In this document: positions 8,513 to 26,384 of the stretch, in pieces
Position numbering within the stretch: the stretch's first letter is position 1
Layout of the letters: each line of letters starts with the position of its first letter
Assembly (NCBI RefSeq): GCF_037902255.1
Contig: NZ_CP147990.1
Coordinates: forward strand, 4,320,001-4,352,000
Length of the DNA stretch: 32,000 nt
DNA from: Candidatus Electrothrix sp. GW3-4
GTDB lineage: Bacteria; Desulfobacterota; Desulfobulbia; Desulfobulbales; Desulfobulbaceae
Direction: 5' to 3'
Notes under the pieces: generated by a model
The model's database searches: none
Seen by the model: only the letters and a program-made list of their open reading frames with translations
What the model was told of the DNA's origin: nothing
Made by a program: the position numbers and the translations under genes

Positions 8513-9628
8513 ATGATAACACAGCTTGAGATAAAGAACTTCAGAGGCTTCTCTGAGTACAAGATTGAGGATGTCGGGCAGGTTAATCTGCTGGTTGGGA
8601 CAAATAACTGTGGAAAAACTTCGGTTTTGGAAGCTGTTCATCTCCTGAGGTCAAGAGGAGATGCCTCTGTCTTGATTTCTCTCCTTTCTCATCGAGGGGA
8701 ATGGATTCCAAATGAAGAACGAATGCATCGTGATGCAGAAGGAGATTTATGCCGATTATTTCATGGATTCCGTTTGACAGCAAAATCAGCTTTGGTCATC
8801 AGTGCTGCTGATTATGCGATTGAAAGGTTATCGGCTTCTATTAATGAAATTCAAGTAGGTCAGCTCTCTCTGTTCAAAGATTTAGCTGACTCTGTAGGAC
8901 GATACCAACTTGACGTTGAATGGGGCTGGGATCAGGACAGACATAGTAAACAAGAATATCCCATTAGTTCTACAGGAGGCTTGTCTTATAATTATATGAG
9001 AAAGATGTCTCGTGCCAAATTAAGCATAGAAGAAGAAAACTATATAGAGTTCGTACCAGCCTCCTCGCTAGCTCCACAAGAAGTTGTTGCTTTGTTTGAC
9101 AAAATGGTTCTTACGCCGGATGAAGACTTGGTACTGGAAGCCGTAAGAATCATTGAACCGGATATTACTCGACTTGCCTCTCTTGGAGGTAGTGATCGAT
9201 ATTATCCTTTTCGATCTAGGGGCTATACTCGTAACGGCATTGTCGTCAAAAGCAGGAAGTGGGAGGAACGGATACCTATCGGCAGTTTCGGTGACGGCAT
9301 TTGGCGTCTGCTCGGCCTCATTCTCTCCCTTGTCGGCGCAAAAAACGGCACCCTCCTCATAGACGAAATTGATACCGGCCTGCACCACAGCGTGATGTCC
9401 AAGATGTGGAAGCTGATTTGCACCACCGCAAGAAAACTCAACGTGCAGGTCTTCGCCACCACCCACAGCAGCGATTGCTGGAAAATATTGGCTGACAATG
9501 CTGTTGAAGACGAAGTTGCAGATATGCCAATCCGCATTCACCGCATTGACAAGGATAAAAAGAAACCGGAAACCTTCACCAATCAGGAAATGCATCTCGC
9601 CTTGAACAGAGAAATTGAGGTGCGTTGA
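8513..9628 (+). CDS. ABC/SMC-type (AAA_15/AAA_21-like) ATPase, component A of a two-gene candidate defence cassette
   Basis: Walker A is GTNNCGKTS. There is a signature/Q-loop-like SFGDGIWRLLGL, a Walker B LLIDEIDTGLH and a His-switch ATTHS. The N-terminal LEIKNFRGF is typical of OLD/GajA/PtuA/AriA-type ATPases. Confidence 0.85.
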   Translation: MITQLEIKNFRGFSEYKIEDVGQVNLLVGTNNCGKTSVLEAVHLLRSRGDASVLISLLSHRGEWIPNEERMHRDAEGDLCRLFHGFRLTAKSALVISAADYAIERLSASINEIQVGQLSLFKDLADSVGRYQLDVEWGWDQDRHSKQEYPISSTGGLSYNYMRKMSRAKLSIEEENYIEFVPASSLAPQEVVALFDKMVLTPDEDLVLEAVRIIEPDITRLASLGGSDRYYPFRSRGYTRNGIVVKSRKWEERIPIGSFGDGIWRLLGLILSLVGAKNGTLLIDEIDTGLHHSVMSKMWKLICTTARKLNVQVFATTHSSDCWKILADNAVEDEVADMPIRIHRIDKDKKKPETFTNQEMHLALNREIEVR

Positions 9629-10269
9629 TGATTTATGAAAAAGTGCTGCTGGTTGAAGGCGAGGAAGACAAACGGGTCATTCCTGAGCTTGTCGAAGCCA
9701 ATGGCGTGCAATGGGGAGATAAACCAAAAGATCGTATTGTTGAAATTAAGCCGCTTCACGGAATAGAAAAACTCCTCGATAAAAACTTGATCAATATTGA
9801 GCTGAAGGCATCTGGTTTGAAAATACTTGGCATCATTCTTGATGCAGATGAATATCCCTCCAAACGCTGGCAAAGCATCCGCAACTGCCTGATTGAAAGA
9901 ATTCCTGACCTTCCAGAACATCTGCCGCAGTCTGGTCTGATTCATCCCGGAGAAATTAAAGTCGGCGTCTGGATGATGCCGGACAACAGAGAACGGGGAA
10001 TGCTTGAGACCTTTCTCCAATTCCTTCTGCCGGAGAACGGTAAGGAGTTATGGAGATTTTCTGAGCAAAGCTGCCTTCAGGCCAAAAAAGATCAGGGTGC
10101 TTGCTTTAAAGATTGTCACAGTGACAAAGCAAAGATTCATACGTGGTTAGCCTGGCAGAATCCACCGGGGAGACAGCTTCATAACGCCATAACTGAACGC
10201 ATTCTTTCGCCTGCTTCACCACAGGCCTCAGTATTTATGCAGTGGTTCACTGGCCTGTTTGAAGTATGA
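9628..10269 (+). CDS. Small Toprim-like protein (DUF3226/DUF4435/DUF4276-like), component B of the cassette
   Basis: The ATG at 9628 overlaps the TGA of the ATPase gene (tTGATG); the ORF track starts at the TTG at 9625. VLLVEGEEDKRVI (Glu10) and GIILDADE (Asp72/Asp74) match the Toprim E...DxD signature. 213 aa. Confidence 0.7.
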   Translation: MIYEKVLLVEGEEDKRVIPELVEANGVQWGDKPKDRIVEIKPLHGIEKLLDKNLINIELKASGLKILGIILDADEYPSKRWQSIRNCLIERIPDLPEHLPQSGLIHPGEIKVGVWMMPDNRERGMLETFLQFLLPENGKELWRFSEQSCLQAKKDQGACFKDCHSDKAKIHTWLAWQNPPGRQLHNAITERILSPASPQASVFMQWFTGLFEV

Positions 10270-10351: not shown

Positions 10352-12499
10352 ATGATGAATAAAGACATATCGTGGCTGGCATCACAGGTGATCTATGAGA
10401 TCTTTCCTGATCGATTTGCGATCGGCAAGAGATACCGCCCTGAGGAAAAGCGTGCCCTGCCCTGTTATGGCAGGGCAACGGACTATGTGGTGCGGGACTG
10501 GCAGGCGCGGCCCAACCCCTTAACCGGGACCAAGGAGTTTTTTGGCGGCGACCTGTACGGGATTATTGACCGCCTGAATTACCTGCAGGACCTTGGCGTT
10601 ACCATCTTATACCTCACCCCTCTCTTTTTCGCCCCTTCCAACCATAAGTACGATACCACGGATTTTCTCGAGATTGATGAACAGTTCGGCGGCAAGGAAG
10701 CCTTGGTGGAACTGATTCATGCGCTCCATGCGCGCAAGATGTATCTTTTTCTTGACATCGCCTTTAATCACATCAGTGATACCCATCCCTGGTTCATCGC
10801 TGCTACCCGCAATGAGCAGCCGTACAGGAATTTCTTTATCCCCTCGGCTGGGTTCCTGGACGATGAGTTTCGCTTCCCGGACGCCCCTGATTTTTCTCTG
10901 GATGAGTTTCAAGGGCTATTCTCTGTTGAAGGCTTATGCAAGGCCATCGCAAGCCATGGTGTAAGGCCGTTGCCAGCCCCTGCAAAAGGGGGAGAATGGC
11001 TCAAGATCGATTGGCTGAATACGCTGCTCACGGACCATGGGCTCTATCAAGAACTGCTGAGCTCTGCCCAGGTCTGGAAGAGCAAGGCGGAGGAGAAGGG
11101 CGCTTTTGAGAAACTGCGCGTGCAATACGAGAAGACGGGCCATAAGGAGGATCTCAAAAGCGTCGTTCGCTTCCTTATGGAACGAGCCTATCCTGGGGAA
11201 ACGCCCAAGGTTCAGGACAGACCTTTGGTGAAACGACTCTGTGGAAAAATAAGGGCAGACTTTGATGGCATCATTGAGGGCATCGTTACAGTTCCCGAGA
11301 ACAGCGTGGCCTGGCTTAATGCCTTTATCCAGATCCCTGATCTTTACGAGCAGATCATCGTCAACAAGGGCAAGACCCTTGACCAGACAATCCAAGCCAC
11401 CCTTGAGACCCTCAAGGCGAAGTATGACAAGTCGCAAGGTGCAGCTGAGCTGGCAAGGCTCAACCGCTCTCTGCTGGAGGCCTTGTATCCCCAGGAAACA
11501 CCGATGAGCTATCAGGCCTGGCAGGGCTACCAGCCCATGCCTGAGCTCAATCTCATGGAGAGGGAGCTCCAGGGGCGGCTGTACCGTCATGAGGACAGCG
11601 TGCTGCAGCACTATCTCCGCTTGGGCGTGGATGGCTTCCGTTTTGATGCGGCCAATGATGTGGGACTCAAGACCATAGAAGATATCCGCCAGGCCCTGCA
11701 CGAGCGCTTCCCTCATGCCGTTTTTATAGGTGAACTGACCACCTATGCGGGTGACTGGATTGATCAGGAGCGCAGGTTTCATGGGGTCATGAATTATTAC
11801 CTCCATGGTGCCTTGTCTGCCTGGCTCAAGGGCGAGATCTCCTCCCTGCAGGTGAACCTTACGGTCAATGAGTACTACCAGGGATATGGCCGAGAAGGGG
11901 CCCTTTGCTCCTGGAATATTCTCTCGAGCCACGACACGGCCCGCCTGAAGACCTTGTTCTCCGACGAGAAGGTGCGAACCCTTGCCCTTATCTCCCAGTT
12001 TACCCTTCCTGGCCTGCCCTTTATCTATTATGGGGAAGAGATTGGCATGGAAGGCGGACCAGACCCGGACTGCCGGCGTCCCATGGTCTGGGACGAAACC
12101 CTGTGGGATAGCAGTACCTTGGCCCTGTACCGAAGACTCCTTGCAATTAGGCAGGAGAGGGCGGAACTGCGAGAGGGGCGCTTTACGATGCTGGGCCATA
12201 AAATGGTTTCAGATGCCCTTGCCTTTCTCCGCTATACGGAAAAAATTAATGAAGTTGCCCTGGTGGTGATCAACAGAAGCTGCGCCCCCTTACAGGAACG
12301 GGTCTTTCTCCCCCATGCCCATCTCTATCAAGGACTACGTCTCAAAGACCTCCTCGCTCCTGCGCAGACCTTTGCCATAGAGTCTGGTGGCAGTATTGCC
12401 TTGGATATACCTGCTCAGGCAGCAGCCATTCTGGTGCCGGATGACACCGCCTTTGTCAATTATGATTTTTATAAGGCCCGAAGTCTGGCTGCGCAGTAA
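10352..12499 (+). CDS. GH13 alpha-amylase-family glycoside hydrolase with a roughly 200+ aa insertion in the domain-B position
   Basis: Conserved region I is DIAFNH (aa 135-140). Region II is GVDGFRFDAANDV (aa 425-437). Region III is FIGELT. Region IV is LSSHDTAR. About 290 aa separate regions I and II, compared with the roughly 60-100 aa I recall as usual. Confidence 0.85.
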   Translation: MMNKDISWLASQVIYEIFPDRFAIGKRYRPEEKRALPCYGRATDYVVRDWQARPNPLTGTKEFFGGDLYGIIDRLNYLQDLGVTILYLTPLFFAPSNHKYDTTDFLEIDEQFGGKEALVELIHALHARKMYLFLDIAFNHISDTHPWFIAATRNEQPYRNFFIPSAGFLDDEFRFPDAPDFSLDEFQGLFSVEGLCKAIASHGVRPLPAPAKGGEWLKIDWLNTLLTDHGLYQELLSSAQVWKSKAEEKGAFEKLRVQYEKTGHKEDLKSVVRFLMERAYPGETPKVQDRPLVKRLCGKIRADFDGIIEGIVTVPENSVAWLNAFIQIPDLYEQIIVNKGKTLDQTIQATLETLKAKYDKSQGAAELARLNRSLLEALYPQETPMSYQAWQGYQPMPELNLMERELQGRLYRHEDSVLQHYLRLGVDGFRFDAANDVGLKTIEDIRQALHERFPHAVFIGELTTYAGDWIDQERRFHGVMNYYLHGALSAWLKGEISSLQVNLTVNEYYQGYGREGALCSWNILSSHDTARLKTLFSDEKVRTLALISQFTLPGLPFIYYGEEIGMEGGPDPDCRRPMVWDETLWDSSTLALYRRLLAIRQERAELREGRFTMLGHKMVSDALAFLRYTEKINEVALVVINRSCAPLQERVFLPHAHLYQGLRLKDLLAPAQTFAIESGGSIALDIPAQAAAILVPDDTAFVNYDFYKARSLAAQ

Positions 12500-16324: not shown

Positions 16325-17080
16325 CTATGCTTTTAACGGCAACCCATTAAATGTCCATTTGTATGGTTTTGCCATTGTCGCATTAAAGTAATCAATAAAG
16401 TCGAGCAATTTGCTCCTGAGATCTTTTTTTGATGTAAAATTACCTCTTTTAATGATTTTCTTAGTAAGAATACCAAACCAAATTTCTACTTGATTGAGCC
16501 ATGAACAGTGTTTTGGGGTATAAACAAAGCGAATTGCATGGTCTTTCTTCCTGAGAAATTCGGCTCTGCTTTTCATTGATTTCAAAATGCCTTGTTTCCC
16601 TTTGACGCCTAAATTATCTTTTATTTCGCATAATTCACTGACCAACTTGACAAGTGATTCCGACTTATGAGTATTGAGCTGATCAGCCACAAAGACCCAC
16701 TCCCGAGTTTCCGGATCGCTTAATATAAGGCTTCGAATATGTTCGCAAAAATCATGTTCGTCCCGAGTGTCTCCTATGCTGGGAGAGACGACTTCACCGG
16801 TCACTACGTCAAAGTTTGCAATGAGCGAGAGTGTTCCGTGCCTGATGTACTCAAACTCAATCCGCTCCGGCTTTCCCGGCTCTATCTTTTTTGTCGGATT
16901 TTTCCTCTCAAGAGCCTGTATTCCGGTATTTTCATCAATACTGATGGTTCGCCTGCCGTTTATTACCGCCTTTCGGGGAGCTTCGTGGTATGTTTCACAG
17001 ACATCTTTCACTTCTAAAACAAACAGTTCTTCATTGTCATGATTGGGATTGAGCCAATACCGACTATGATGAGGTTTCAC
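16325..17080 (-). CDS. IS630-family transposase, DDE catalytic part (orfB)
   Basis: 251 aa. Contains ISIDENTGIQA (first D), VFVADQLNTHKS (second D) and HCSWLNQVEIWFGIL (E region), as in DDE_3/IS630-Tc1 transposases. This frame is open from the A-run and overlaps orfA. Confidence 0.8.
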   Translation of the reverse strand: MKPHHSRYWLNPNHDNEELFVLEVKDVCETYHEAPRKAVINGRRTISIDENTGIQALERKNPTKKIEPGKPERIEFEYIRHGTLSLIANFDVVTGEVVSPSIGDTRDEHDFCEHIRSLILSDPETREWVFVADQLNTHKSESLVKLVSELCEIKDNLGVKGKQGILKSMKSRAEFLRKKDHAIRFVYTPKHCSWLNQVEIWFGILTKKIIKRGNFTSKKDLRSKLLDFIDYFNATMAKPYKWTFNGLPLKA

Positions 17081-17621
17081 ATCGGTTTCTTTTTAAAAAT
17101 CGGCCCACTTGACGGTCCGAAATTCCAGAGGTTATCCCACGCTTATTGCATTCATCCGCCAATTCCCTACTGCTCCATTGAGAAATTGGACGACCGCTTT
17201 CTTCGGGATGCTCCAGTGCAACTGCTAAAATCTGACAATATTGTTCTGAAGAATAAGTTACTGGTGCTCCCGGACGCGGATTATCTTTTAAAACTTCTCG
17301 AATACTTTTTTCCAACTGATTGGCATTTTGGGGATCAGTCTCTATTTGCATTAAAGTATCTTGGTTGGCCAGCCACTTGTATCTCCAATGTTTAACCTTG
17401 TCGATACTGCAACTCATGACTTTTGCAATCTTTGAGTTCGGTTTTCCTTTCTCAATCTCCAATATTAAAGAAGCCCGACTTACCTCACGAAAATCAGCTG
17501 TTGATTGTCGAGCTATTTTTGACAAAATTTCTTTCTGTTGTTCGGAAACAGCAATTGATGGCGATTTGGGTGTAGGCATTTTCGAATCCATGTGTTGCAA
17601 GATTGTTGTCAATATACGCAA
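17064..17621 (-). CDS. IS630-family transposase, N-terminal HTH part (orfA)
   Basis: 185 aa with helix-turn-helix-like segments (SKIAKVMSCSIDKVKHWRYKW; RELADECNKRGITSGISDRQVGRFLK). The ORF ends inside the tta-aaa-aga A-run region. Confidence 0.8.
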   Translation of the reverse strand: MRILTTILQHMDSKMPTPKSPSIAVSEQQKEILSKIARQSTADFREVSRASLILEIEKGKPNSKIAKVMSCSIDKVKHWRYKWLANQDTLMQIETDPQNANQLEKSIREVLKDNPRPGAPVTYSSEQYCQILAVALEHPEESGRPISQWSSRELADECNKRGITSGISDRQVGRFLKRNRCETSS

Positions 17622-18049: not shown

Positions 18050-20187
<2,138 letters not shown>

Positions 20188-20195
<8 letters not shown>

Positions 20196-20535
20196 AAAAT
20201 CAGACAGCAAGCGTGCGCAAGAGGAGACAGTGTTTAGTCGGGAAGTTGGCACAAAGGCGGCACGCAAGCTCAAGGCGCAGCGTAACGCCACGCCGGGTGT
20301 CTGGTTTGGCCTGGGCATGATGGGACTGGTCGGCTGGTCGGTGGCGGTGCCGACGCTGCTCGGTGCAGCGCTTGGTCTCTGGTTGGATAACCAGCATCCG
20401 GGCCAGTATTCCTGGACACTGGCACTGTTAATGGCCGGACTTGTGATCGGCTGTTTCAATGCCTGGATTTGGATTGCCAAAGAAGACCGGGCCATGCGAG
20501 AGGAACAGGAGGATAAGGAGGATAATGATGACTGA
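20188..20535 (+). CDS. atpQ: N-ATPase accessory membrane protein AtpQ (ATPase_gene1 / AtpZ-AtpI-like)
   Basis: 115 aa with two TM segments (VWFGLGMMGLVGWSVAVPTLLGAALGLWLD; WTLALLMAGLVIGCFNAWIW). The ATG overlaps the atpC stop. Sits at the third position of the N-ATPase operon. Confidence 0.8.
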
Positions 20536-20890
20536 AACGTTAACCTTGATGCTGACATTGATGCCAGTCTGGGTGACCGGAGGAATGATCGGAGTAATGT
20601 TTTTCGGCGGACTCTGGTGGACAGTGCAAAAGGCGCTTTCATCCACACGACCGGCACTGTGGTTTTTCAGCAGCTGGCTGCTGCGGATGAGCCTTGCCCT
20701 GACCGGATTTCACCTTGTTGCGGGCGGCCATTGGCAACGGCTACTGATCTGTCTTCTGGGCTTTGTCATGGCACGCCCGGTCGTGACACGGCTGACCCAA
20801 TACAGCGTCCCTCCGAAACCCTGTATGGCGAGTCTCGGAGAGACTCGCGTACCTGATGCGGAGACACAGGAGGTCAAGGATGCGCCTTAG
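20525..20890 (+). CDS. atpR: N-ATPase accessory membrane protein AtpR
   Basis: ORF 20459..20890. I prefer the ATG at 20525 (MMTETLTLML...), which overlaps the atpQ stop. Hydrophobic protein with a membrane-embedded Arg (SWLLRMSLALTGF). Sits at the fourth position of the operon. Confidence 0.75.
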   Translation: MMTETLTLMLTLMPVWVTGGMIGVMFFGGLWWTVQKALSSTRPALWFFSSWLLRMSLALTGFHLVAGGHWQRLLICLLGFVMARPVVTRLTQYSVPPKPCMASLGETRVPDAETQEVKDAP

Positions 20891-21581
20891 CCCCGATGAA
20901 ATCATCTTCTGGCAACTGGGTTTTTTCAAACTCAACGCCACCATTGTCTTTACCTGGGGACTGATGCTCGTGCTGGCCGTCGGCGCCAGACTCATCACGC
21001 GCAAACTGTCCACCGATCTGGAACGTTCCCGCTGGCAGAACCTGCTGGAAATCGTGGTGACCGGCATTGAGCAACAAATCAAAGAGGTGGGCCTGACGCA
21101 GCCTCGGCAATATCTCGGCTTTTTGGGCACGCTTTTCCTGTTTGTCGCCGCAGCCAGCCTTGGCACCGTCATTCCGGGCTTTGAGCCGCCCACCGGTTCG
21201 CTCTCGACCACGACGGCACTTGCGCTGTGTGTGTTTGTGGCTGTGCCGCTGTTCGGCATTGCCGAGCAGGGGGTGAGCGGTTTCCTCTCATCCTATGTGC
21301 AGCCGACGTTCATCATGCTGCCCTTTAACATCATCAGCGAAATTTCACGGACACTGGCCCTGGCCGTCCGTTTGTTCGGCAACATGATGAGCGGGGCCAT
21401 GATTATCGCTATTCTGCTGACCATCACGCCGTTCCTCTTTCCCATTGTCATGACGCTGCTCGGCCTGCTCACCGGCATGGTGCAGGCCTACATTTTTAGC
21501 ATCCTGGCCGCAGTCTATATCGCGGCCGCCGCCCAAGTCCATAAGTCCAAACTTCAACCGCAGCAAACCGTTGCAGCATGA
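20880..21581 (+). CDS. atpB: N-type ATPase subunit a
   Basis: ORF 20856..21581. I prefer the ATG at 20880 (AGGAGG at 20868-20873). Contains the conserved stator Arg region LALAVRLFGNMMSG. Confidence 0.9.
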   Translation: MRLSPDEIIFWQLGFFKLNATIVFTWGLMLVLAVGARLITRKLSTDLERSRWQNLLEIVVTGIEQQIKEVGLTQPRQYLGFLGTLFLFVAAASLGTVIPGFEPPTGSLSTTTALALCVFVAVPLFGIAEQGVSGFLSSYVQPTFIMLPFNIISEISRTLALAVRLFGNMMSGAMIIAILLTITPFLFPIVMTLLGLLTGMVQAYIFSILAAVYIAAAAQVHKSKLQPQQTVAA

Positions 21582-21605: not shown

Positions 21606-21890
21606 ATGTACAGCAGCATGACTATTATCGCGGTGGCATCCATTGTCATCGCTGGCATTACCACCGGTTTCGGCTGTTTGGGGCCAGCACTAGCCGAAGG
21701 CAGGGCGGTCGCGACAGCCCTGAGTTCGCTGGCCCAGCAGCCCGATGCCTCCGCCACGATCACTCGGACCCTGTTTGTCGGTCTGGCAATGATCGAATCC
21801 ACGGCCATTTACTGCTTTGTGGTCTCGATGATTCTGATCTTCGCCAATCCGTTCTGGAATTACGTTATCGCCCAAGCTGCGGGACAGTAG
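21606..21890 (+). CDS. atpE: N-type ATPase c subunit (proteolipid) with a full Na+-type ligand set
   Basis: 94-aa helical hairpin with loop motif AQQPD. Helix 2 carries IESTAIY (E64, S65, T66, Y69). Helix 1 has E31 at the position of Q32 in the Ilyobacter tartaricus c subunit. Confidence 0.92.
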   Translation: MYSSMTIIAVASIVIAGITTGFGCLGPALAEGRAVATALSSLAQQPDASATITRTLFVGLAMIESTAIYCFVVSMILIFANPFWNYVIAQAAGQ

Positions 21891-21894
21891 ACCT

Positions 21895-22677
21895 ATGTTA
21901 ATCGATTGGTTCACCGTCGGTGCGCAGGCACTCAACTTTCTCATCCTGGTGTGGTTGATGCAGCGATTTCTGTACAAGCCCATTCTGCACGCCATTGACG
22001 CGCGGGAAGAGCGGATCGCCACGGAACTTGCGAACGCCGACGCGAAAAAGGCCGAGGCCCGACAGGAGCGCGACGAGTTCCGGGACAAGAATGAGGAAAT
22101 GGACCGACAGCGTGCCTCGCTGTTGAGCAAAGCAACAGAAGAGGCGCAGGCCGAACGAGAACGGCTCCTCGACGAAGCACGGCAGGCTGCGGCGGCCTTG
22201 CGTTTAACACAGCAGGAAGCCTTGAGAAACGAACAACAGAACCTGCACCAGGCACTCATCCGCCGGACACAGCAGGAAGTTTTTGCCATCGCACGTCAGA
22301 CGCTGACCGATCTCGCCGGGACGAGTTTGGAAGAACGTCTGGGCGAGGTGTTCACGCGCCGCTTACGCGAAATGGACGACCAGGCGAAAGCAGATCTCGC
22401 CGAGGCCCTGGAGACAACAGGGAAGCCCGCGCTCGTGCGCAGCGCAGGTGATCTGCCTGTCGAGCAGCGCGCAGCGATACAAAAGGCGCTCAACGAAACC
22501 TTCTCGGCCGACATCCACCTTCGCTTCCAGACCACGCCGGACCTGATCAGCGGTATTGAACTCACCGCAAATGGACAAAAGGTGGCCTGGAGCATTGCGG
22601 ATTATCTGGCATCGCTGGAAAAAGGTGTCGATGAACTTCTGAAAAAAAAGATAAACTATAAAGAGGGTCTAACATGA
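21895..22677 (+). CDS. atpF: N-type ATPase subunit b (long form with delta/OSCP-like C-terminal part)
   Basis: 260 aa. N-terminal TM segment, a long charged helix ([27 protein letters not shown]...), and a C-terminal [20 protein letters not shown] resembling the delta C-terminus. No separate atpH gene is present, as expected for N-ATPases. Confidence 0.88.
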
Positions 22678-22853
22678 AAGAAGGCACAATGGATTTTTGG
22701 CGTATCATCCTGTCTGTCATCATTCCGCCGGTAGGGGTCTTTTTACAGGTCGGTTTCGGTCTCCATTTCTGGATCAATATCCTCCTGACCTTATTGGGCT
22801 ATATTCCGGGGCTGATTCATGCGATCTGGATTATTACAAGAAAAACAAACTGA
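22674..22853 (+). CDS. Pmp3/YqaE (UPF0057) family small hydrophobic protein, not in the ORF track
   Basis: My own translation: [59 protein letters not shown] (59 aa). It closely matches E. coli YqaE as I recall it (...ILPPLGV...[18 protein letters not shown]). The ATG overlaps the atpF TGA (ATGA). Its stop lies 2 nt before the atpA ATG. Confidence 0.88.
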
Positions 22854-22855
22854 GG

Positions 22856-24436
22856 ATGAAGGAACCGATAAGTAGGGAAGCTGAGGGCCTCAAGAACGTT
22901 TTCGACAGCGCGTTTGCCGGAATAAGCCAGGTGCGGAAATCGTTCAAGCCGCAACTTATGCCCCGTGAGGTGGGCACAATCACCGGTATCGCCACCGGCA
23001 TCGCCAAGGTCTCCGGGCTGCCCGGCGTGGGCTTTGAGGAACTTGTGCAATTTCAAGGTGATGTACTCGGTATCGCGTTCAACGTGGATGCAGACGAAAT
23101 CGGCGTTGTCCTGCTCGGCGAATACTGGCGCCTCCACACGGGAGATGAAGTCCAACGCACGGGCCGGGTCATGGACGTGGCCGTGGGCGAAGGATTGCTG
23201 GGGCGCGTCATTGACCCGCTTGGTCGGCCGCTTGATGGCAATGGGCCGATGGCCGCAAGCGAGCGTCTGCCCATTGAACGCCCTGCCCCGCCCATCATGG
23301 ACCGCGCGCCCGTCACCGTGCCGCTCCAATCCGGTCTCAAAGTCATTGATGCGCTCATTCCCATCGGGCGCGGCCAACGCGAGTTGATCCTGGGTGACCG
23401 GCAGACGGGCAAGACCACCATTGCCATCGACACCATCCTCAACCAGCGCGACCATAATGTGCTGTGCGTGTATTGTGCCATCGGCCAGCGTGCGTCCGCT
23501 GTAGCCAAGGCCGTGGCCACCCTGCGGGAAAAGGGAGCCATGGAGTACACCGTCCTCGTCGTGACCGAGGGCAACGACCCGCCGGGCCTTACCTACATCG
23601 CGCCTTACGCTGCAACCAGTATTGCGGAGCATTTCATGGAAGCGGGTCGAGACGTGCTGATCGTGTACGACGATCTCACCCATCACGCCCGCGCCTACCG
23701 CGAACTCTCGCTCCTGCTGCGCCGTCCGCCCGGTCGCGAAGCCTTCCCCGGCGACATCTTTTATATCCACTCGCGGCTGCTGGAACGCGCCACACACCTG
23801 CGCGAGGAACTCGGTGGCGGCTCCCTCACCGCCCTGCCCATCATCGAGACCGAGGCGCAAAACATTTCCGCCTACATTCCGACCAACCTGATTTCCATCA
23901 CGGACGGGCAGATCTACCTCTCGCCGTCCCTGTTTGAATTGGGCGTGCTGCCGGCAGTCGATGTGGGCAAATCCGTTTCGCGCGTCGGCGGCAAGGCGCA
24001 ACGGGCGGCCTTCCGCGCGGTGGCGGGCGACCTCAAGCTCGCTTACGCGCAGTTCGAGGAACTTGAGACCTTTGCCCGCTTTGGTGCCCGCCTAGATCAA
24101 GATACCCGCAAGATTATCGAGCACGGACGGCAAATCCGCGCCTGCCTCAAACAGCCGGAATTTGCCCCGGTGGCCGTGCCCGCACAAATCGCCGTCCTGC
24201 TGGCCTTAACTGTGGAGCTGTTCGATGAGGTGGCGTTGGACCGGATGACGGACGCCGAGCAGGCCGTGCGCCAGGCAGCAGCGGAGATCCCATCGGAGGT
24301 GTGCAAGCGGTTGGAGACCGCCGAACAGTTGAGCGACGAAGATCGTGCAACGATCATTGCAATCGCCCGCAAATCACTGGAAGGGTTCCAGCCTGAGACG
24401 GAATCCGAAGCCCAACCAGAAGTAACTTTATCTTGA
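22856..24436 (+). CDS. atpA: N-type ATPase alpha subunit
   Basis: ORF 22697..24436. The first 53 codons of that ORF overlap the Pmp3 gene in another frame, so I prefer the ATG at 22856 ([16 protein letters not shown]...). The P-loop is GDRQTGKT. Confidence 0.92.
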
Positions 24437-24527
24437 AGATGGCAGAAAAGTTTTCTGAACTTTCAAAAGAGAACAGAAGGGGGAATAAACCATGTTGTTG
24501 AACACAATCAAAGTAGGAGGATACATC

Positions 24528-24890
24528 ATGATTTTGAATGAATTGGCAAATAAAGTGAAAAAATCCAGGATTTCGCGAGCAAAGGATATGCGACGAAACA
24601 GAACTAAAAATATCGCCATAGGGGTCGGCATCGGCTCCGTACTGGGGGTTGCGGCCGGAATCCTGTTCGCCCCTAAATCGGGCAAAGAAACCCGGCAAAT
24701 CATTGCCGATAAAACCAGCGAAACCGTGAAGGATTTTAAAAATAACGTGTCCGCAACCAAAGAAAAAATATCCGTTTCGGCTGCGGAAAAGGGCTCTCGT
24801 TTGCGCGAAGCCGGTCAGGAAGGCGTTGCGGTCGTAAAAGAATCTTTGAGAAAATTAGGTGAAGACAAGAAGAATGAATCCAATACATAA
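24528..24890 (+). CDS. YtxH domain-containing membrane-anchored protein
   Basis: ORF 24492..24890. I prefer the ATG at 24528 (AGGAGG at 24515-24520). Carries the hallmark GIGSVLGVAAGILFAPKSGKETRQII followed by a charged helical tail. Confidence 0.82.
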   Translation: MILNELANKVKKSRISRAKDMRRNRTKNIAIGVGIGSVLGVAAGILFAPKSGKETRQIIADKTSETVKDFKNNVSATKEKISVSAAEKGSRLREAGQEGVAVVKESLRKLGEDKKNESNT

Positions 24891-25052
24891 AGTTTGACAG
24901 CCAGTACCCCACCTTTTGAATAATCGACACTTTCAGCACTGTATCAGTACGGTAAGAATGCCGAAAAATGGGCTTGCAGGTCAACTTCGAGTGTCGATTA
25001 TATTTGGTTAGCTGCTTAATTACTTTTTAAAATGCAAAAAAAGGATGGCCTT

Positions 25053-25445
25053 ATGCAAGGATCAATTACGTTGAATGAATTGGGCATATTCATCATTTTT
25101 GCTTTAATTGTCGTGGCCGGTGGATACGCCATCGTGACGCTGAAAAACATTAATGCTTTGATTAAAGTGGCTTCAGCCACGCTGCAAAAAAACCAAGGCC
25201 ATTTAAATCAAATCATTCCCAATATTAATGAGATTTCAGAAAATACCGCAAAAATCAGCGAAGAGATCAAAAAAAGCGTTGATGAGGCGGGTGAGGCCGT
25301 CAGAACCATTTCTCATGAAACCGCCGATACAGTCTTGACGATCAATGAGACCGCTGATTATCTGGCAAAATATGCCCTGGTGATCGGCGAAATTGCCAAG
25401 ACGATTGTCAATATGTTTTCATCGAATGAGAAAGCTATGAAATAA
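25053..25445 (+). CDS. DUF948-like membrane-anchored coiled-coil protein
   Basis: ORF 25032..25445; the start is at 25032 or 25053. An N-terminal TM segment (LGIFIIFALIVVAGGYAIV) is followed by LKNINALIKVASATLQKNQGHLNQIIPNINEISENTAKISEEI. This architecture matches DUF948 proteins, which I recall pairing with YtxH genes in Firmicutes. Confidence 0.7.
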   Translation: MQGSITLNELGIFIIFALIVVAGGYAIVTLKNINALIKVASATLQKNQGHLNQIIPNINEISENTAKISEEIKKSVDEAGEAVRTISHETADTVLTINETADYLAKYALVIGEIAKTIVNMFSSNEKAMK

Positions 25446-25484: not shown

Positions 25485-26384
25485 ATGAGCGAGACTACGG
25501 CGAGTCTGCGCCGAAAGATCAGTAGTGCTGGAGATCTCCAATCCGTCGTGCGCACGATGAAGTCCTTGGCCGCTTCGAGCATCGGACAATACGAGAAATC
25601 GTTGAGCGCGTTGGCCGACTACAATCGCACGGTGGAGCTGGGATTGAGTGTCTGTTTCCGTGGTGCCAGTTCGGCGGCATTTATGGTAACCGGAGAGACA
25701 CAACAAACGGATACGGGTGAGCTGAGCGCGGTCGTGTTCGGGTCCGACCAGGGATTGGTGGGCCAATTTAATGACGTGGTGGCCGATTACGCCATGAAGA
25801 CCCTCGCAACGCTGCCCGGCAGACCTCAGGTATGGGCTGTCGGCGAACGTGTTCATGCACGCTTGACGGACGCAGGCCTGCCTTCGGTCGGCCTCTTCGG
25901 GGTGCCGAATTCCGTCAAGGCCATCACCCCGCTCATCGACCGAATACTGGTGGAAAGCGAGGCAGGTCGCAGCTCGAACGAGGGTGTTGCACCGCTTTAC
26001 CTTTTCTACAACCGCCCAGGATCAGGCCCGGTTTATGCGCCGGTCAGTCAACGACTGCTGCCTTTGGATGAAAACTGGCGGCTCAAGCTCGCCGAGCTTC
26101 CCTGGCCGACGGGAAACTTGCCCGAAATCATGGGTGACAGCGGCACGACTCTGCGTGCACTCATCCGCGAATATCTTTTCGTTTCGCTCTTCCGGGCCTG
26201 CGCCGAATCCCTTGCAAGCGAGAACGCGAGCCGTCTGGCCGCCATGCAGCGTGCTGACAAAAATATCGACGAATTGCTGGAAGACCTCAATAGAACGTTC
26301 CATAGTTTGCGCCAGAGCGGCATCGACGAGGAATTGTTCGACGTCATCTCGGGCTTTGAATCGCTGAGTGTCGAGGAGCAATGA
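25485..26384 (+). CDS. atpG: N-type ATPase gamma subunit
   Basis: 299 aa. The N-terminal LRRKISSAGDLQSVVRTMKSLAASS and C-terminal ENASRLAAMQRADKNIDELLEDL...IDEELFDVISG helices are typical of gamma. Last gene of the atpDCQRBEFAG order. Confidence 0.9.
   Translation: MSETTASLRRKISSAGDLQSVVRTMKSLAASSIGQYEKSLSALADYNRTVELGLSVCFRGASSAAFMVTGETQQTDTGELSAVVFGSDQGLVGQFNDVVADYAMKTLATLPGRPQVWAVGERVHARLTDAGLPSVGLFGVPNSVKAITPLIDRILVESEAGRSSNEGVAPLYLFYNRPGSGPVYAPVSQRLLPLDENWRLKLAELPWPTGNLPEIMGDSGTTLRALIREYLFVSLFRACAESLASENASRLAAMQRADKNIDELLEDLNRTFHSLRQSGIDEELFDVISGFESLSVEEQ

Follow-up and report, generated by a model that had tools for sequence, protein, structure and literature searches.

N-ATPases (the 'alternate F1F0 ATPases'; Dibrova et al. 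2010) are a widespread second rotary ATPase, described as always accompanying a regular F- or A-type ATP synthase, and their role in Na+ extrusion has mostly been inferred. Their operons hold nine genes in the order atpDCQRBEFAG, among them atpQ and atpR but no delta gene, and encode a c subunit with a Glu and an ESTxxY motif, which Dibrova et al. (2010) regarded as the group's Na+ signature. The same authors called the gene order 'highly conserved' and mentioned one- and two-gene insertions only for cyanobacterial operons. The Pmp3/RCI2/YqaE proteins (UPF0057, PF01679, COG0401) are peptides of 52–59 amino acids with two hydrophobic helices; representatives exist in every domain of life, and they affect membrane potential and salt tolerance, with no agreed mechanism or partner, and known members have been described as stand-alone, stress-regulated genes. 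Here, we examined a 32,000-nucleotide stretch of Candidatus Electrothrix sp. GW3-4 (contig NZ_CP147990.1, positions 4,320,001 to 4,352,000; 'the window'), in which an earlier, sequence-only reading had placed a pmp3 gene between atpF and atpA of an N-ATPase operon. The gene resembles known family members in its full-length profile match, its size and its two hydrophobic helices, but unlike them it is embedded in a rotary ATPase operon. The operon has all nine genes in order, AtpR and AtpQ, the c-subunit motif and no delta gene, but unlike those of Dibrova et al. (2010) it has pmp3 between atpF and atpA and a YtxH-like and a DUF948-like gene between atpA and atpG, and the canonical ATGA overlap is replaced. 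The gene is an ordinary PF01679 member and the operon an ordinary N-ATPase; the combination is new. A full-text literature search found no paper linking an N-ATPase with Pmp3, in keeping with the sequence-only reading, which knew of no description of such a link. A later evolutionary survey of N-ATPases does not mention Pmp3, YqaE or UPF0057, and a paper on salt adaptation in cable bacteria mentions neither the ATPase operon nor Pmp3.

The pmp3 open reading frame (ORF) is a real gene under purifying selection. It spans 59 amino acids from an ATG start (22674..22853, forward strand), is listed by the ORF tool and has the translation given in the sequence-only reading. Its product matches the Pfam family PF01679 (Pmp3) with E=2.2e-22 and 79.2 bits, against a gathering score of 22.9, over profile positions 1–48 of 49, and has 4349 database homologues at E<=1e-5. 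Between two sub-lineages of operon-embedded copies (the window against contigs L007, L008, L010, L012 and L013; contigs and loci of our survey are cited by L numbers), the ratio of nonsynonymous to synonymous substitutions (dN/dS) was 0.07–0.09 at a dS of 0.39–0.51. The AlphaFold2 model is a two-helix hairpin (residues 2–27 and 30–58, mean pLDDT 85.7), so that the predicted shape is the one typical of the family, with 59 residues in two hydrophobic helices joined by a short loop, and would fit either a transmembrane hairpin or a monotopic protein. A Foldseek comparison of this model with the PDB gave zero matches. The sequence-only reading had called the gene hidden. It is indeed missing from the length-filtered ORF track, but Prodigal-type gene calls on public contigs include it, and NCBI annotates near orthologues in Ca. 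Electrothrix sp. AUS4, LOE2 and Rat3/E. rattekaaiensis as 'YqaE/Pmp3 family membrane protein'.

An ORF of only 59 codons, AT-rich at 44% GC against 57–62% in its neighbours, could in principle be a chance open frame or a dead, unexpressed remnant. However, the full-length Pfam match lies well above the gathering score, the start is preceded by a proper Shine-Dalgarno sequence, and the frame is intact in 12 other contigs despite dS values of up to 0.5, so that conservation effectively refutes this explanation and we give it almost no credence. Most of the low GC follows from amino-acid composition, as GC at codon positions 1 and 2 is 0.38. At third positions (GC3) pmp3 reaches 0.53–0.57, against 0.61–0.79 in the flanking atp genes, a deficit of 10–20 points in every host examined. 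An early idea that the atp genes were foreign and the inserted genes host-like in GC was dropped, since housekeeping genes of the window (metG, glyQ) have 55% GC and composition accounts for most of the low GC of pmp3, which leaves only the GC3 deficit.

The embedded protein closely resembles free-standing Pmp3. Embedded and stand-alone homologues have 22 invariant positions in common, and the pattern shared by the window protein and free-standing bacterial homologues includes R10, PP18-19, G21, G27, G29, N35, T39, Y43, P45-G46 and H49. No sequence signature separated embedded from stand-alone copies in the alignment, where only a few conservative changes differ. The window genome also has a second, stand-alone paralogue (P0071, 77% identity).

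At the junction itself, the atpF stop codon (TGA, 22675-22677) overlaps the pmp3 ATG (22674-22676) as ATGA, and the pmp3 stop (TGA, 22851-22853) is followed by GG and then by the atpA ATG at 22856 (TGAggATG). A longer ORF in the atpA frame (22697..24436, 579 codons, TTG start) is a mechanical upstream extension, as atpA is called from ATG 22856 on identical public contigs, with a product of 526 amino acids. The identity of the gene, both joints and the artefactual nature of this extension are thus as the sequence-only reading had described them. A Shine-Dalgarno-like sequence lies in the coding tail of atpF, and the leader ataaagagggtgtaacATG is conserved in L003-L005 and also in L018, where it now drives atpA. 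The sole purine-rich stretch before atpA, GAGG, abuts the ATG, and the window sub-lineage has no properly spaced Shine-Dalgarno sequence there. The absence of usable spacing suggests that synthesis of the alpha subunit probably relies on ribosomes finishing pmp3, i.e., that atpA translation is probably coupled to pmp3 in this strain.

This packing had been described as tight as that of a genuine subunit gene, which holds for the window but only partly for its relatives. The atpF/pmp3 ATGA overlap occurs in the window and its identical contigs only; in relatives the two genes are separated by 21 to about 390 nt. The 3' end of atpF has been remade in the clade: in relatives it ends in KPEAEI, followed by a spacer of 21–36 nt, and the spacers of L019 and L178 range from 170 to about 390 nt. 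In the window and its identical contigs, a further change has lengthened atpF up to the overlap; this tail (the last ~8–14 residues of AtpF) is lineage-specific and AT-rich, and relatives match AtpF residues 1–252 only. The TGAggATG joint between pmp3 and atpA is kept in the window, L003-L005, L019 and L178, whereas L006-L013 and L180 have a 50–75-nt spacer with an AAGGTGG site of its own before atpA. In the atpF-pmp3 spacer of Ca. E. rattekaaiensis (L178 6635-6799), a 23-nt unit, GCATGGTTTCGATCCGATCGAAT, is tandemly repeated ~7 times, and L019 has a similar spacer at 12091-12260.

We surveyed atpF-atpA junctions by mapping operons and searching all six frames with a Pmp3 hidden Markov model. 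Species representatives of GTDB were scanned with an AtpR alignment (a 34-sequence subset sharing FFGGLWWT) and metagenomes with AtpF; in each case the best 80 of at least 600 candidate loci were taken, with flanks of at most 6 kb for the metagenomes. The order atpF-pmp3-atpA recurs in 12 further non-identical contigs. Contigs with this order are L003-L008, L010-L013, L019, L178 (Ca. E. rattekaaiensis) and L180 (an 8.76-Mb contig with 60% GC); embedded homologues lie on the contigs with P0002 (97%), P0006 (93%) and P0007 (91%). Among the GTDB representatives, pmp3 was found at 1/72 junctions (L019, a Desulfobulbaceae metagenome-assembled genome, MAG), and among the metagenomes at 0/67. The sequence-only reading had proposed looking for recurrence at other atpF-atpA junctions: it holds inside one clade of operons, but the 138 other N-ATPase junctions surveyed are without pmp3, which argues against an obligatory subunit. 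The gene is also absent from three operons found through AtpA (L181-L183), and plasmid-borne N-ATPase operons appear to be without it, as judged by blastn match coverage only. No other Pmp3 gene was found within 10 kb of the 80 GTDB-representative N-ATPase loci.

In a neighbour-joining tree of AtpA (110 taxa), all Pmp3-bearing operons form one clade in the topology. Percent identity of AtpA is a poor marker of this clade, being 85–94% across phyla, and a 92%-identical 'Pirellulales' operon is without pmp3. Close homologues that stand alone, with no ATPase nearby, were found at L179 (88%), L009 (86%), L014 (Desulfobulbus sp. US1, 81%) and L017 (77%), and the closest of these (L179, L009 and L014) are Desulfobacterota genes. 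The 4.24-Mb Desulfobacterales contig of L009 also has two N-ATPase operons ~44 kb apart (L063 and L064), both without pmp3, and its stand-alone Pmp3 gene lies ~20 kb from the nearer of them. On one metagenome contig (L123 1181-3700), atpR-B-E-F is followed by pmp3, a truncated P-type cation ATPase (Cation_ATPase_N and E1-E2_ATPase) and an HhH-GPD gene, with no atpA at that place; either the operon has decayed or the contig is an assembly chimera. Many other apparent inserts between atpF and atpA ('envelope' gaps) were set aside, since with real stop codons nearly all are C-terminal extensions of atpF, N-terminal extensions of atpA or frameshifted MAG sequence. The few remaining ORFs in these gaps have no Pfam family, except for one DUF2934. 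This DUF2934 module occurs at the junction in other N-ATPase lineages, either as a separate 55-amino-acid ORF or fused to the C-terminus of the b subunit (L044 12110-12277; L182 7186-7998; L183 6958-7998).

The junction keeps traces of how pmp3 arrived. In canonical outgroup operons, atpF ends in ...CCAATGA and atpA starts at that ATG, giving an ATGA overlap. Downstream of pmp3, the window retains a remnant of this old junction (AAGGAACCGATAAGTAGG vs AAAGAGCCAATGAACATG), which in the atpA frame reads AAG GAA CCG ATA AGT AGG against the ancestral AAA GAG CCA ATG AAC ATG, so that the ancestral atpA ATG is now ATA and the present ATG lies 4 codons upstream. From these sequences, pmp3 appears to have been inserted into a coupled atpF/atpA junction, and the one clade of the AtpA tree indicates a single origin. 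The Desulfobacterota affiliation of its stand-alone relatives and its lower GC3 are consistent with a host gene having joined an operon that was acquired laterally. In one operon of the clade, L018 (Ca. Electrothrix sp.), the nine atp genes are all retained, and both pmp3 and the remnant of the ancestral junction are missing. It has the YtxH/DUF948 insert in common with the window, is nested inside the clade, and carries a deletion scar (L018 3680-3730) at which an in-frame fusion joins the pmp3 leader catataaagagggtgtaacATG and an ATG to codon 8 of atpA (GAA GCT GAG GGC CTC). The direction of change is therefore clear: L018 lost pmp3 secondarily by a clean in-frame deletion, so that pmp3 has been lost at least once.

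The surrounding operon (Table 1) keeps the canonical order with three inserted genes (atpD, C, Q, R, B, E, F, [pmp3], A, [YtxH], [DUF948], G) and is the sole ATPase operon within the window. Its subunits beta, epsilon, a, c, b, alpha and gamma all score above the curated NCBIfam cut-offs of the alt_F1F0 models, which outscore generic F-type models except for epsilon, where the generically named NF004871 (PRK06228) scores higher. Arg53 of AtpR is invariant across 77 aligned AtpR sequences. The c subunit has a Glu in helix 1 (GPALAEGRAV) and ESTAIY in helix 2 (AMIESTAIYCF), which fits ESTxxY. By these marks the operon encodes an N-ATPase that probably pumps Na+, and the putative Na+-type ATPase of the sequence-only reading is borne out at the level of the motif. 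A study of the Burkholderia N-ATPase examined ion specificity and is said to have found H+ coupling. No Rfam family, the Na+ riboswitch included, was found in the operon or upstream of it, and promoter and terminator scans gave background levels, with nothing between atpF, pmp3 and atpA.

Table 1 Features of the N-ATPase operon with embedded pmp3, in window coordinates.
Feature	Coordinates	Strand	Evidence
atpD, F1 beta subunit	18293..19816	+	TIGR03305 alt_F1F0_F1_bet 882.5 bits (cut-off 752); start per gene call on identical contig L001
atpC, epsilon subunit	19788..20195	+	TIGR03166 alt_F1F0_F1_eps 164.5 bits (cut-off 100.1); Pfam ATP-synt_DE_N
atpQ (AtpI-like, ATPase_gene1)	20188..20535	+	Pfam PF09527 E=1.4e-14; TIGR02230 139.8 bits
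atpR, N-ATPase-specific membrane protein	20528..20890	+	Pfam PF12966 AtpR E=3e-28; TIGR03165
atpB, Fo a subunit	20880..21581	+	TIGR03306 altF1_A 377.7 bits (cut-off 302.1)
atpE, c subunit, Na+-type ligand set (predicted)	21606..21890	+	TIGR03322 alt_F1F0_F0_C 164.4 bits (cut-off 130.85)
atpF, b subunit (b-delta-like)	21895..22677	+	TIGR03321 alt_F1F0_F0_B 334.7 bits, residues 1-246 of 260
Shine-Dalgarno-like AAGAGGG, 6 nt upstream of pmp3 ATG, within atpF coding tail	22661..22667	+	Sequence reading
pmp3/yqaE, UPF0057 proteolipid, 59 aa	22674..22853	+	Pfam PF01679; dN/dS; AlphaFold2 model; public gene calls
atpA, F1 alpha subunit	22856..24436	+	TIGR03324 alt_F1F0_F1_al 930.3 bits (cut-off 750.5)
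YtxH-like small membrane/stress protein, between atpA and atpG	24528..24890	+	Pfam PF12732 E=3.4e-15
DUF948-like protein, between atpA and atpG	25053..25445	+	Pfam PF06103 E=1.7e-6, below gathering score; start per L001 gene call
atpG, gamma subunit, last gene of the operon	25485..26384	+	TIGR03323 alt_F1F0_F1_gam 414.9 bits (cut-off 282.35)

We favour, with a probability of roughly 55%, a lineage-specific, single recruitment of a host Pmp3 paralogue that has been inherited with the operon and acts as a co-expressed accessory limiting membrane potential or cation stress, and not as an obligatory subunit. In this scenario, a chromosomal Pmp3/YqaE gene of a Desulfobacterota host would have entered a laterally mobile N-ATPase operon a single time, at the junction where atpF and atpA ancestrally overlapped, and then been passed on with it in a clade that includes the marine cable bacteria (Ca. 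Electrothrix). It would be co-transcribed with the pump and, in this strain, would form part of a translational chain, through the ATGA overlap with atpF and the 2-nt distance from its stop to atpA. With co-transcription and coupling, any synthesis of the pump would also yield Pmp3, at levels similar to those of the b and alpha subunits. As hardly anything distinguishes the embedded protein from free-standing Pmp3 proteins, the economical assumption is that it does the generic job of the family, which may be to limit excessive membrane potential or cation stress. Such help would be needed at exactly the time when the cell turns on an electrogenic, ATP-driven Na+ exporter, and Pmp3 would then be an accessory of a salt- and ion-stress operon. 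Work on other organisms supplies the elements of this proposal: deletion of pmp3 in yeast is reported to hyperpolarise the membrane and make cells Na+-sensitive (Navarre and Goffeau 2000, as cited in PMC12136403), UPF0057 expression reportedly goes up as the membrane potential falls (PMC9006882, citing Kwok et al. 2020), and the N-ATPase-type Na+-ATPase of the cyanobacterium Aphanothece is an electrogenic Na+ uniporter whose Na+ transport rises when the potential is dissipated, as by CCCP or nitrate (PMC2928168). AtpI, AtpQ and AtpR offer a parallel, as each is a small, hydrophobic, non-catalytic protein encoded in an ATPase operon and presumably co-expressed with it. Unlike Pmp3, however, AtpQ and AtpR were detected in surveyed N-ATPase operons wherever the contig covers the region, whereas Pmp3 occurs in one clade only, can be dispensed with (L018) and was recently recruited from another, widespread family.

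Several points weigh against this proposal. The loss in L018 shows that the pump can do without Pmp3. The association is confined to a single clade, so that shared ancestry alone could explain its recurrence; the clade itself comes from a neighbour-joining tree of a very conserved protein (84–94% identity), in which deep branches are weak, and the frequencies outside it are estimates from the best 80 loci per scan. Finally, the step in which Pmp3 buffers the potential is borrowed by analogy from yeast and plant work, and the function of bacterial Pmp3 is poorly defined.

One could instead suppose that pmp3 is a passenger that landed in the atpF/atpA overlap and became locked in once translation of atpA depended on it; its product would then only repeat what the housekeeping Pmp3 does and have nothing in particular to do with Na+ pumping. 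Such a history would explain why the window sub-lineage has kept the gene: its atpA starts 2 nt after the pmp3 stop and lacks a Shine-Dalgarno sequence at proper spacing, and the junction was coupled already in its ancestral state. The one loss observed is an exact deletion through which atpA took over the leader and ATG of pmp3, which is what one would expect were such rare events alone tolerated; the window genome has another Pmp3 copy, and these operons gather many unrelated inserts (baeRF_family3, CMAS methyltransferase, DUF2254). We nevertheless consider this account unlikely. A dN/dS of ~0.08 indicates that the amino-acid sequence is selected and not merely the translation of an ORF, and the sub-lineage of L006-L013 and L180 keeps pmp3 although its atpA has a 50–75-nt spacer and its own AAGGTGG site. 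Several other inserted or fused genes are for ion transporters (TrkHA, AI-2E family, VIT1, MpsC), which speaks for accretion by function and not for random cargo.

A closer, physical tie is a more doubtful proposition. Pmp3 might be a component or assembly factor of the membrane sector of this clade's N-ATPase, binding the a subunit, the c-ring, b, AtpQ or AtpR and tuning ion leak or coupling. That subunit genes flank it on both sides and that its coupling in the window resembles theirs would fit, as would the strong purifying selection and its retention with the operon in hosts as unlike as the ~4.6-Mb Electrothrix and the 8.76-Mb, 60% GC genome. There is also precedent for a Pmp3-family peptide as an integral small subunit of a bacterial energy-converting complex: PscF ('Ric1'), a resolved subunit of the Chlorobaculum reaction-centre complex (PDB 7UEB chain F, 8GWA), is the only solved structure with detectable similarity to the window protein (E=1.8e-4, residues 6–57), though the similarity is weak and the green-sulfur-bacterial reaction centre is a different complex. 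Likewise, a nematode Pmp3-like protein and a partner protein form a cation channel (PMC12136403). However, the 138 other junctions and L181-L183 lack the gene, as plasmid operons appear to, judged by blastn match coverage only; L018 deleted it cleanly with the ATPase intact; the few conservative changes relative to free-standing copies include no clade-specific, interface-like signature; and the atpF-pmp3 spacing varies from 21 to about 390 nt. We therefore regard a physical role as quite unlikely. Its most specific form, a bona fide accessory subunit docked at the a/c-ring or b-subunit region that gates a charge-compensating cation leak or regulates Na+/H+ coupling, is by analogy conceivable but less probable again; if true, it would provide the first molecular partner, and hence a mechanism, for the 25-year-old 'membrane potential modulator' family of Pmp3. 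Taken together, the distribution in one clade, the variable spacing from atpF, the loss in L018 and the lack of a signature argue against an obligatory subunit and favour a co-expressed accessory: pmp3 is not general in N-ATPase operons, and where it was lost the enzyme was retained.

Other genes have also entered these operons, and the 'strictly conserved' gene order of N-ATPases is often interrupted. The YtxH-like and DUF948-like pair of the window (24492-25445, 40–45% GC) lies at the same place in L018 and L178, and L018 has an additional ORF of 437 amino acids with no Pfam match. Insertions recur in the gap between atpA and atpG, in N-ATPase operons of Desulfobacterota and in some others (L003, L019, L026, L027, L074, L181); the genes seen there are for an AI-2E-family transporter, baeRF_family3, a CMAS-type methyltransferase and DUF2254, along with a CitMHS fragment. 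Between atpB and atpE, L007, L008 and L012 have a gene for a VIT1 transporter. The Pmp3-bearing operon of L180 is directly preceded by TrkH-TrkA (K+ uptake; L180 467-2637), which overlaps the start of atpD, and an MpsC-domain gene lies just upstream of the operon in L006 (1734-2177), L007 (452-895) and L010 (1769-2353). Judged from gene content, the TrkHA and MpsC neighbours point to a putative K+/Na+ homeostasis super-operon, and N-ATPase operons in Desulfobacterota serve as platforms on which genes for ion homeostasis and membrane stress gather (TrkHA, AI-2E-family, VIT1, YtxH, DUF948). This context is in line with the proposed ion-stress role of Pmp3. In this strain, the operon borders a mobile element, an insertion sequence-like pair encoding a DDE_3 transposase and an HTH_32 protein (16325-17621, reverse strand), ~700 nt upstream of atpD. 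Further upstream (8513-10269), two genes of the window overlap, one for an ATPase of the AAA_15/AAA_21 type (AbiEii-like) and one for a DUF3226 protein, as is typical of candidate defence systems.

Within its limits of one origin, one clade and at least one loss, the selected link at the operon level provides a testable hypothesis, namely that Pmp3 may offset the hyperpolarisation or ion stress that would come from an electrogenic Na+ pump. The link was found in marine cable bacteria, whose physiology is centred on membrane energetics and salinity.

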